Positions 15,834 to 34,842 of a stretch of DNA of 64,000 nucleotides are shown piece by piece. The notes below the pieces were generated by a model. The model was given only the letters and a program-made list of their open reading frames with translations, did no database searches and had not been told where the DNA came from. This DNA comes from Shigella phage SSP1: sequence record KY963424; one strand, 5' to 3'. The translations under genes and the position numbers were made by a program. Positions within the stretch are counted from its first letter, which is position 1, and every line of letters starts with the position of its first letter.

Positions 15834-15862
15834 TTGATAAAATTTTCTAATACTATTATAAT
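15834..15862 (+). promoter_or_regulatory. sigma70-type promoter upstream of distal tail protein gene
   Basis: TTGATA - 17 bp - TATAAT; followed by AGAGGAG SD and ATG at 15890. Confidence 0.5.
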
Positions 15863-32184: not shown

Positions 32185-32211
32185 GTTAAAAAGAAAGGGG
32201 CCGAAGCCCCT
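32185..32211 (-). terminator. Intra-operon hairpin/terminator between the D11-like and SbcD-like genes
   Basis: On the - strand: 6-bp GC stem (AGGGGC/GCCCCT) with 4-nt loop followed by TTCTTTTT; the SbcD-like start 3 nt downstream has no SD. Confidence 0.45.
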
Positions 32212-32218
32212 CTATTTA

Positions 32219-32992
32219 TTAGTCGTCCAGATCGCTTGCAGCTTCTGTGTCAATACCTTTCTGGGAGCCTGCATTGCTATTACCAGATTTGGCATCATCA
32301 TCTTTATTCTCACGACCCTCCATGAAGGCTTGAATTGCTTCTTTCTGCTCTTCATAGGTAGGAACCGGATAGGTTTGTTCCAGAGAAGGAACTTTTTCGA
32401 ACTTAATGATGTCGCCATCTTCATCACACATAGCTTCACCGATCAGATCTACGTCTGCAGCATATTGCTTAGATTCTGCACTGTTAGGATCTTGCAGCTT
32501 AATCTGGAACTGCATAGCAGCAATCTGCTGTACATCATACTCAGTATCGAAACCTTTACCTTTTTTCTCGATAGAAATATCAATATCAAACGGAGTTGCC
32601 AGATTCAACTGCTTCATGATAGACTGGATGCCTTTCAGAATCGTAGCCTTGACTTCCATTACTTTCAGTTTGTTATCAGAACGGTCGATAACAAAAGCGA
32701 TATAGTTTTTCTTCGGTTTCAGCGGAACACGATTACCATCTTTATCCAGCTCTTTCTCGAAGAAGCCCATCTCATGAACCGGATCAGCTTTACCACGAAC
32801 AAAGCTCTCTTTGTCACGGTTAAAACGGAGGCATTCGAAAGGAGCTACGTTACCCTCTTTATTAGTCAGCCAATAGACATAACGTGGAAGAACACCAGAA
32901 ACGATACGAACACGAGTGATACCGTTGTTGAACTTCAGGAATTCGATTTTATCGTTAGAACCGCCAGTAGTTTCGCCCCAAGACTTAGCCAT
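32219..32992 (-). CDS. Hypothetical protein (T5 D11 position); possible ssDNA-binding protein with acidic C-terminus
   Basis: 257 aa; acidic C-terminal tail (...EAASDLDD) as in phage SSBs. Function is inferred only. Confidence 0.3.
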   Translation of the reverse strand: MAKSWGETTGGSNDKIEFLKFNNGITRVRIVSGVLPRYVYWLTNKEGNVAPFECLRFNRDKESFVRGKADPVHEMGFFEKELDKDGNRVPLKPKKNYIAFVIDRSDNKLKVMEVKATILKGIQSIMKQLNLATPFDIDISIEKKGKGFDTEYDVQQIAAMQFQIKLQDPNSAESKQYAADVDLIGEAMCDEDGDIIKFEKVPSLEQTYPVPTYEEQKEAIQAFMEGRENKDDDAKSGNSNAGSQKGIDTEAASDLDD

Positions 32993-33269
32993 ATTTTATT
33001 TCCTCTTTAAAGATTAATTTCGATTTGTTAATTGCGATTAGTGGGTTAGTGTCGATTACTAAACGTGGTATCCATACTGGAACATATTGTATGTCCAAAC
33101 TAGGATCGTTTGTAAACTTGTATTCGGCATAATTTCGTAGACTTAAAATCCCTAGATATTCTGCCAGTTGTCTATTAGACAATTTATTTGGATTATCAAC
33201 TATTGTTGATTCATTCAAAATGAATGAGGAACCGACCAATAATTGGTGAGCATCAGGCTCTGTAAGCAT
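32985..33269 (-). CDS. Hypothetical protein
   Basis: 94-aa ORF downstream of tandem promoters; no motif recognised. Confidence 0.35.
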   Translation of the reverse strand: MLTEPDAHQLLVGSSFILNESTIVDNPNKLSNRQLAEYLGILSLRNYAEYKFTNDPSLDIQYVPVWIPRLVIDTNPLIAINKSKLIFKEEIKYG

Positions 33270-33376
33270 TCTTTTGAATAGCTTAATAATTAGGTCGGAA
33301 TTTCCTCTAGCTAGTAAGTATAGCTTTTCATAATCGAAGAATTTAATTTTTGTTTTCTCCTCGAATTTATGTATAT

Positions 33377-33406
33377 ATTATACTAGATTTCGAGAGAATT
33401 TAGCAA
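33377..33406 (-). promoter_or_regulatory. sigma70 early promoter (downstream copy of tandem pair)
   Basis: - strand: TTGCTA - 18 bp - TATAAT with AT-rich upstream (AAAATTTTAG). Confidence 0.6.
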
Positions 33407-33477
33407 CTAAAATTTTTATTTTTCTGCTTCGGACTTTCTTATCAAACCGAAACTTTCTCTCTCAAATTTATGTATAT

Positions 33478-33506
33478 ATTATACATCATTTATGAGCTAT
33501 TGCCAA
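33478..33506 (-). promoter_or_regulatory. sigma70 early promoter (upstream copy of tandem pair; overlaps 3' end of helicase gene)
   Basis: - strand: TTGGCA - 17 bp - TATAAT; the -10 and following 14 nt are identical to the copy 101 bp downstream. Confidence 0.6.
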
Positions 33507-34842
33507 ATGCAATTTTAGCTAATTGAACTGCTTTCTCCGGAGTCATAGTAATAGTTTTCCACCCGTTATTACGATATACTGCCATACGTCCAGAAGCCTG
33601 TCTTAGTCCAGTACCACCTTTCATAATTAGATCTACAACAATAGGATCGAGTTTACCCTTGACAATACGTTGAACACGGCCTGCAAGCTGTTCAATGAGA
33701 GATTCATTATTAATAAGACTTCCCATTATTAAACAAGACAGCTCATTAAGGGAAATACCTTCAGAGAAGATACTTTGAGCGGCTGCGAGTACACAAGGTC
33801 CACCTTTTGCTATATCTTCCTGAATTTTTAATCGATCATCTAAGTGGGTTGCCCCTATAATTTCATATGTTGTAACACCACGCTGTGCAAGAGCTTCTAG
33901 TACTGTTTGGATTAACTCTGTTCTGTCACTTACAATGAGTACTTTATGCCCCATATTCACATATAAATGTGCTAGATTTATAATAGTCTCTCGATATTCA
34001 GGATGGTTGTACACATCATTAGCACGTAATGCCCATGGCACATTCTGATTTCCTGATAACTCAACAGGCACGGAGTACCTATGGATTGTAGGTGCAATAG
34101 TATTATTAACCGGCGGGCTAAAGATCTTATATCCAAAGAAATCTTTGAACATAACTTGTAGACCATCTTTTCTTTTTAATGTTCCAGATAGCCCGATTTT
34201 ATAGCGAGCACATGATATTTCTAGGAAGTTAGTGAAAGTTGTAGCCACACAATGGTGAACTTCATCAACTATAACAGTACCGAATACTTTAGAAAGATTA
34301 TTCGCATGTTTATTCACTGTTTGAATATTACTGACCACAATTGGTGGGTCAATATTGTATTTCCCGGAACCTATGATGCCTGGTTCAAACCCAAACCATT
34401 TACGAACTTCTGCCGCCCACATTTCACGAATAGATGTGTTGGTACAAATTACCAAAGTTTTCTGGCCAAATTTATACGCAAGCGCAAGGGCTAGGATAGT
34501 TTTACCAAATCCAGGCTTACCATTAATAATACAGGTATCATCGCATTCTTCGTATATTGGAAGCTGGTCTTCTTCACGCAGCTTGAACTTAGGTTTTGGT
34601 ATATCTACCGGAGCTAATGTGCGTTTATCAACTAATTCGTATTTTACTCCTTTAGCATCTAGTAAGTCTAGACGTGTAATAGGAATCCACTTAATCTCTT
34701 TGGCAACAACACCACTATTCTTATACATAATAGGGTATTTACTAGTCATTGTCTCAATGTGATAAGTGGTTTGCTTACTACAATAATCCCAAAGTTCATC
34801 ATCGGGCTTGAAATAGGCTTTATTAGATATAACAACCTTCAT
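33490..34842 (-). CDS. SF2 DNA helicase (DEAH-type; T5 D10 position)
   Basis: 450 aa; Walker A GKPGFGKT, Walker B VIVDEVHH, motif III SGT, C-terminal helicase domain with QLAGRVQR arginine-finger motif. Confidence 0.8.
   Translation of the reverse strand: MKVVISNKAYFKPDDELWDYCSKQTTYHIETMTSKYPIMYKNSGVVAKEIKWIPITRLDLLDAKGVKYELVDKRTLAPVDIPKPKFKLREEDQLPIYEECDDTCIINGKPGFGKTILALALAYKFGQKTLVICTNTSIREMWAAEVRKWFGFEPGIIGSGKYNIDPPIVVSNIQTVNKHANNLSKVFGTVIVDEVHHCVATTFTNFLEISCARYKIGLSGTLKRKDGLQVMFKDFFGYKIFSPPVNNTIAPTIHRYSVPVELSGNQNVPWALRANDVYNHPEYRETIINLAHLYVNMGHKVLIVSDRTELIQTVLEALAQRGVTTYEIIGATHLDDRLKIQEDIAKGGPCVLAAAQSIFSEGISLNELSCLIMGSLINNESLIEQLAGRVQRIVKGKLDPIVVDLIMKGGTGLRQASGRMAVYRNNGWKTITMTPEKAVQLAKIAFGNSS

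Follow-up and report, generated by a model that had tools for sequence, protein, structure and literature searches.

Promoters of the sigma-70 type that lie about 100-130 bp apart in front of one transcription unit and give high output are well known from phage T7 (A1/A2/A3) and from E. coli (rrn P1/P2), and in both cases the promoters differ in sequence within the set and are differentially regulated. For T5-like phages a promoter consensus has been described that consists of TTGCTw, a spacer of 17-18 nt and TATAATA, with an AT-rich tract at -43 (AAAAATT) and TAAATT at +1 (PMC3326045). An ATATT-like discriminator is reported to be common to all known T5 early promoters, and gpT5.026 to weaken the contacts between RNA polymerase and the discriminator and to lower early transcripts (Klimuk et al. 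2020, PMC7472727).

In the T5 reference genome (NC_005859.1) two neighbouring promoters are annotated, promoter P31A (75467-75541) over the stop codon of the D10 helicase gene and promoter P31B (75568-75642) ahead of T5.125. In another T5 record (AY587007) P31B is named putative early promoter T5P38, and the core of P31A is labelled repeat c copy 7. Klimuk et al. 2020 (PMC7472727) give no promoter names in their supplement. Since a search of the full-text literature, with the primary T5 promoter papers outside its reach, found no 5'-end evidence for P31A or P31B, their annotation in T5 may be predictive. Here we describe the corresponding locus in a 64,000-nucleotide stretch of DNA (the window), for which an earlier note, made from the letters alone, had proposed a tandemly duplicated early promoter.

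Identity and anatomy of the promoter pair

The window belongs to a T5-like phage (Tequintavirus). Its promoter locus was 99% identical to that of Tequintavirus phages, with 440 phage records matching, and the window, a Tequintavirus isolate different from T5, was 99% identical to phage DaisyDussoix. Among the records that were 89-99% identical to the locus were also OR847785 (Listeria phage LM 4-11-1) and MG065642 (Campylobacter phage A148); the Listeria and Campylobacter host labels of these T5-like records look doubtful.

The window could be aligned at the T5 coordinates of both P31A and P31B, with D10 upstream and T5.125 and D11 downstream, and over the aligned promoter stretch it differed from T5 by two substitutions. 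Judged by its sequence, the window pair is orthologous to T5 P31A and P31B and is thus a known, already annotated and ordinary feature. We therefore use the T5 names below, and the P31A/P31B annotation can be transferred from T5 to the window phage. The coordinates of the elements are collected in Table 1.

Table 1. Features of the P31A/P31B locus, in window coordinates
Feature	Position	Strand	Remarks
D10 SF2 helicase gene, 450 aa	33490..34842	-	3' end carries the P31A -35
P31A, TTGGCA-17 nt-TATAAT	33506..33478	-	11/12 in consensus scan
P31A -35, TTGGCA	33501..33506	-	within last helicase D10 codons (F-G-N); T5 annotation P31A
P31A -10, TATAAT	33478..33483	-	17-nt spacer; begins 7 nt past helicase stop
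Upstream 20-nt block	33465..33484	-	-10, discriminator ATATAC, first transcribed bases ATAAATT
P31A-leader hairpin	33426..33453	-	GTTTCGG, 14-nt loop, CCGAAGC; 10-bp stem in T5
A/T-rich UP-element-like tract AGAAAAATAAAAATTTTAG	33407..33425	-	5' of P31B -35
P31B, TTGCTA-18 nt-TATAAT	33406..33377	-	10/12 in consensus scan
P31B -35, TTGCTA	33401..33406	-	consensus scan; T5 annotation
P31B -10, TATAAT	33377..33382	-	18-nt spacer; consensus scan; T5 annotation
Downstream 20-nt block	33364..33383	-	repeat search
Shine-Dalgarno, GAGGAG	33357..33362	-	9 nt 5' of ATT codon
T5.125 homologue, 120 codons	32985..33347	-	read from ATT 33347-33345
D11 SSB gene	32219..32992	-	phrog_1607, E 6.6e-106
Intrinsic terminator after D11	32194..32213	-	8-bp stem, 5 G-C pairs, T-run; annotated in T5

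The 20-nt block GTATAATATATACATAAATT (- strand), on which the earlier note was based, was present in two exact copies with 0 mismatches at a spacing of 101 nt, and each copy had a -35 hexamer of its own, as the note had stated. When up to three mismatches were allowed the window contained 5 matches to the block, compared to 0.01 expected from shuffles, and in the repeat search the pair stretched to 31 nt with 87% identity at the same spacing. The proposed overlap of the upstream copy with the helicase gene was right for the -35 hexamer and some of the spacer, which lie over the last five codons (F-G-N-S-S), but not for the 20-nt block itself, which is located downstream of the stop codon (TAA, 33492-33490, -). 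Both promoters have hexamers near TTGACA and TATAAT with a spacer of 16-18 nt, as used here to define sigma-70 promoters, and they gave two of the top three promoter scores of the consensus scan between 31000 and 36000. Their reading as tandem early promoters of the sigma-70 type agrees with the annotation of the orthologous pair in the T5 reference and with the conservation of both cores in 28 genomes (see below). It also confirms that annotated T5 promoters can be recovered by reading the sequence without tools.

The -10 hexamer, the discriminator and the initial transcribed bases are identical in P31A and P31B. The discriminator, ATATAC, agrees with ATATT at 4/5 positions and consists of A/T except for the C at -1. 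The upstream regions are different, with a strong A-tract at P31B (33425-33407) and none at P31A. P31B fits all elements of the T5-like consensus (PMC3326045), and P31A fits it except for the -35 hexamer (TTGGCA), its tract at -43 (TAAAATT) also being weaker. P31A could be much weaker than P31B, because it lacks a strong A-tract and has TTGGCA instead of the TTGCTw of the family. The AAAAATAAAAATTT motif of the UP-like tract of P31B recurs upstream of a promoter at 15857 (+), and in total 18 near-consensus T5-type promoters were found in the window. Additionally, a promoter-like sequence (TTCACA-17-TATAAT, 11/12) was observed in antisense orientation inside the helicase gene (33956-33984, +); it has neither the upstream nor the +1 motif of the T5 type and could easily have arisen by chance.

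Genes downstream and proposed transcription

The T5.125 homologue was always found directly upstream of the SSB gene D11, and in the window the D11 start and the T5.125 stop share an overlap of 8 nt. The terminator behind D11 is strong, looks bidirectional and occupies the entire D11-D12 intergenic space. Past it follow D12/D13 (SbcCD-like), D14, D15 (flap endonuclease) and dut. Thus, downstream of the promoters, where the earlier note had placed a recombination operon, the T5.125 homologue and D11 come first and the terminator intervenes before D12/D13. In this corrected operon picture T5.125 and SSB D11 are served first and the terminator gates the recombination genes. From 33377 down to the next strong terminator, at 27348-27320, the - strand showed no other promoter of at least 10/12, and the terminator scan gave no terminator between D10 and P31A. 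Expression of D12-D15 and dut would seem to rely on read-through, since the terminator after D11 is not followed by a strong promoter.

Most likely, host RNA polymerase would initiate at both P31A and P31B, with A33471 and A33370 as the +1 positions predicted by analogy with other T5 promoters, and transcripts from P31A, P31B and read-through from pol-D10 (Ppol) would add up, so that the T5.125 homologue and SSB D11 are transcribed at a high level early on. SSB would be needed in stoichiometric amounts, hence its high early expression, and the terminator would lower the flow into the enzyme genes D12-D15 and dut. We infer the firing of both promoters in vivo and their start sites, and from the gene order we consider an additive boost for SSB and T5.125 most likely. 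The best explanation of the locus is therefore, with a probability of about 0.75, that the pair represents the P31A/P31B orthologues with a family-consensus core, both of which fire and boost T5.125 and D11.

Differential timing by the two promoters, also suggested previously, found no support in the sequence, since their -10 hexamers, discriminators and initial transcribed bases are identical. For the same reason a factor that acts on the discriminator, such as gpT5.026 (PMC7472727), would treat P31A and P31B alike.

Conservation of the locus and a slot between two promoters

Conservation was assessed in 28 Markadamsvirinae loci from IMG/VR. The -10 hexamers and the spacing were kept at both promoters in 28/28 loci, and so were the -35 hexamers, except for a genus-level change from TTGCTA to TTGTCA at P31B. 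In a comparison of the window with one Epseptimavirus genome, both promoters showed 100% identity over the discriminator and the first transcribed bases, whereas identity was 94% in the inter-promoter interval, approximately 88% in the flanking genes, and 70% in the stretch from -35 to -10 of P31B (hexamers and spacer). In most genomes the P31A -35 also codes for helicase, which confounds its conservation. In some Epseptimaviruses, however, an HNH homing endonuclease gene displaces the D10 3' end just upstream of the P31A -35 and replaces the last helicase codons (2114-2644 in locus L002, phage GreteKellenberger; also L029 and L034), and the P31A region in these genomes is unchanged compared to insert-free genomes. 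As the insert has displaced the helicase 3' end, P31A is conserved there without helicase coding.

Small deviations in length were seen in single loci, namely an extra TATA within the discriminator of P31B (L028, an IMG/VR Tequintavirus), a GA insertion in the initial transcribed GAGAGAG run of P31A (L019), and a 1-nt shift in the spacing between Shine-Dalgarno sequence and ATT (L018 and L023).

A promoter at the D10 stop together with one ahead of T5.125 was found in Tequinta-, Epseptima-, Sugarland-, Novosib-, Priuna- and Cetovirus. Sugarlandvirus has three promoters, at spacings of 92 and 100 nt, Novosibvirus has two at 95 nt, and two other uncultivated lineages carry pairs that are 98-105 nt apart. 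Between the two promoters, Providencia phage PR1 has an ORF of 84 aa (L006, 579-833) and Vibrio phage Ceto one of 134 aa (L007, 439-843), and no homology between these two ORFs was found (BLASTP E = 1.4). With this distribution the arrangement is old, and it behaves like a variable accessory-gene slot bounded by two promoters. If this is true, accessory genes that are unrelated to one another, or a third promoter, would come and go, and an empty slot would have a spacing of about 92-105 nt. In two Klebsiella Sugarlandvirus loci (L004 and L036) the last of the three -10 hexamers ends 4 nt before the ATG of the T5.125 homologue, which suggests that the proximal promoter would give a leaderless mRNA.

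The start codon of T5.125

In public records T5.125 starts at the ATG at 33269 and encodes 94 aa (32985-33269). The reading frame is open as far as the ATT at 33347-33345, and the predicted P31B leader to this ATT would be 23 nt, like other T5 promoter-RBS cassettes. Epseptimavirus has an ATG at the codon that matches the Tequintavirus ATT, and the CDS of the T5.125 homologue, as annotated in four distant genera, begins exactly at the aligned ATG. ATT was present in 22/22 Tequintavirus loci and ATG in all other lineages, except for two distant loci in which the alignment start was offset. The phrog_4258 profile covers T5.125 positions 1-120/120. In the lineage with ATT, 4 of the 26 additional codons varied by synonymous changes only and 1 varied with an amino-acid change; for the rest of T5.125 these numbers were 17 and 7, respectively. 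Between the window and Epseptimavirus the region of the Shine-Dalgarno sequence was the least conserved segment (44%), GAGGAG with ATT being replaced by GATGAGAGAC with ATG. Hence, as far as comparative sequence evidence goes, Tequintavirus T5.125 is probably a protein of 120 aa that is initiated at AUU and has been annotated 26 codons too short.

If so, Tequintavirus would combine a strong GAGGAG Shine-Dalgarno sequence with a weak AUU start, in comparison to a weak Shine-Dalgarno sequence with AUG in Epseptimavirus, and T5.125 would be a rare natural AUU-initiated gene that is mis-annotated in hundreds of genomes. The mis-annotated start matters for the design of expression or knock-out experiments at the locus and is of more practical value than the promoters. 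No sequence match to T5.125 was obtained in Pfam, NCBIfam or PDB, phrog_4258, a family without assigned function, being the sole match. A difference in accessibility of the Shine-Dalgarno sequence between the P31A and P31B transcripts was considered and rejected, as the predicted stem that contains it lies wholly 3' of the P31B +1 and is common to both. That a Demerecviridae slot with two promoters and no duplication exists and that the AUU-initiated Tequintavirus T5.125 is annotated 26 codons short has, as a joint statement, about an even chance of being correct.

Alternative explanations

Alternatively, the identity beyond the -10 may be kept because the 20-nt block is the target of a phage-encoded regulator of early transcription, for instance gpT5.026 acting on the discriminator or a shut-off factor, and the pair would then be a regulatory site in the first place. 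We consider this unlikely. gpT5.026 is reported to act on the ATATT-like discriminator of T5 early promoters (PMC7472727), and conservation of P31A and P31B is highest over the discriminator and positions +1 to +7. However, the motif is family-wide and so accounts for the conservation but not for the tandem arrangement, and the discriminator of both promoters is ATATAC and not ATATT.

It is quite unlikely that only P31B matters and that P31A, as an orphan promoter-RBS cassette left behind where other genera carry an accessory gene in a variable slot, contributes little transcription in T5-like phages. Such a role would be consistent with the unrelated ORFs that PR1 and Ceto carry between their promoters, with the degenerate Shine-Dalgarno-like GAGAGAGAAAG that follows P31A without any gene behind it, and with P31A having no strong UP-like tract. 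On the other hand, between genera that have 88% coding identity P31A keeps its non-coding -10, discriminator and initial transcribed bases to 100%, and these are invariant in 28 genomes, which would not be expected for a dead relic.

We also evaluated whether the inter-promoter interval encodes a functional RNA element that acts, in transcripts from P31A or from further upstream, as an attenuator or as a hairpin for RNA processing or stability, and regard this as very unlikely. The P31A leader folds better than shuffled sequences (-26.2 kcal/mol, z = -2.9), and its hairpin is enclosed by UUUGAGAGA pairing with the P31B spacer. The identity of the interval between genera exceeds that of the coding flanks (94% compared to 88%), and the 23-nt hairpin motif (AGTCCGAAGCAGAAAAATAAAAA region) is single-copy per genome. 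From Tequintavirus to Sugarlandvirus the 3' arm and the following A-tract (AGTCCGAAGCAGAAAAATAAAAA) are kept, and in Sugarlandvirus the stem is retained in spite of a different and shorter loop. Nevertheless, no covariation was found in the stem among 30 genomes, in which all changes were one-sided or stem-breaking; two loci (L012 and L023) have substitutions that break the stem, and in the window it is reduced from the 10 pairs of T5 to 7. The stem is not followed by a U-run, and Rfam gave no meaningful match, the best being SprD with 18.9 bits compared to a gathering score of 100. Moreover, half of the conserved stretch is accounted for by the UP-like tract of P31B.

Two other functions for the same interval were tried and rejected. 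The hairpin does not qualify as an intrinsic terminator of the helicase gene, as the stem is followed by AGAAAAAUAAAAA (-) and the terminator scan reported none. A mini-ORF of 9 codons after P31A (TTG ATA AGA AAG TCC GAA GCA GAA AAA TAA) does not explain the conservation, which is not of a coding type, since the sole ORF available in Sugarlandvirus reads the conserved AAAGTCCGAAGCAGAAAAATAAAAA in another frame.

Lastly, we compared nine annotated 75-nt promoter features of T5 (60-90 kb) with respect to the word duplicated, by which the pair had been described. P31A and P31B were identical at 42/75 positions (56%), which is within the range of non-adjacent pairs (19-50/75) and leaves P31B as near to Ppol (50/75) and P31A as near to P-N25 (46/75) as they are to each other. 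Only in the core from -10 to +8 did they stand out, with 24/27 identical positions compared to at most 21 in other pairs; the -35 hexamer, the spacer (17 and 18 nt) and the upstream region all differ. Because the overall identity of P31A and P31B is no higher than that of unrelated T5 promoters, a recent segmental duplication is not indicated, and a local duplication as the origin of the pair did not hold. On this comparison, the 20-nt identity is that of a conserved functional family core, in which TATAAT is followed by an A/T discriminator and then by ATAAATT (+1 to +7). A recent tandem duplication of one promoter cassette is highly improbable: the cores are identical at 20/20 positions and nearer to each other than to any other window promoter (next best 2 mismatches), and a distant uncultivated relative (L050) does seem to have a true duplication at this locus, its two promoters agreeing at 66/80 positions with the spacer and upstream tract counted, which shows that duplications can occur here, but Epseptimavirus has the same arrangement and core and four further genera have equivalents, so that any duplication of P31A and P31B would be ancient.

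Comparison with known promoter systems

The reading of the pair as P31A/P31B orthologues with a family-consensus core can be set against other promoters of T5. P-N25, the classic strong T5 promoter, has the initial transcribed sequence CATAAATTTGAGAGAG in common with P31A and is identical to it at 46/75 positions overall. Unlike P31A, it is solitary, with TTGCTT and a strong A-tract, and the RBS of gene D2 is provided by its GAGAGAGGAG, whereas the equivalent GAGAGAGAAAG after P31A has no gene. P-K28b and P-K28a (at approximately 42069 and 41976 of the window, -) are likewise a tandem sigma-70 pair in the same orientation, 93 nt apart and located before the early replication gene ligB. In contrast to P31A and P31B, P-K28b has TTGACA and TATACT and another initial transcribed sequence, and the P-K28b/P-K28a pair shares no long identical block, with only 13/27 identical positions in the core. 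The upstream member, P-K28b, is followed by a Shine-Dalgarno sequence and an ORF of 8 codons (MARVSKVS). T5 holds another close promoter pair, with a distance of 138 nt.

In comparison to T7 A1/A2/A3 and rrn P1/P2, P31A and P31B differ in having identical cores and are not known to be differentially regulated. With the T5 pair P31A/P31B the window pair has in common the position from the D10 3' end to T5.125, the hexamers and the 101-nt spacing; nothing of substance differs, and the window isolate has one substitution in the hairpin.
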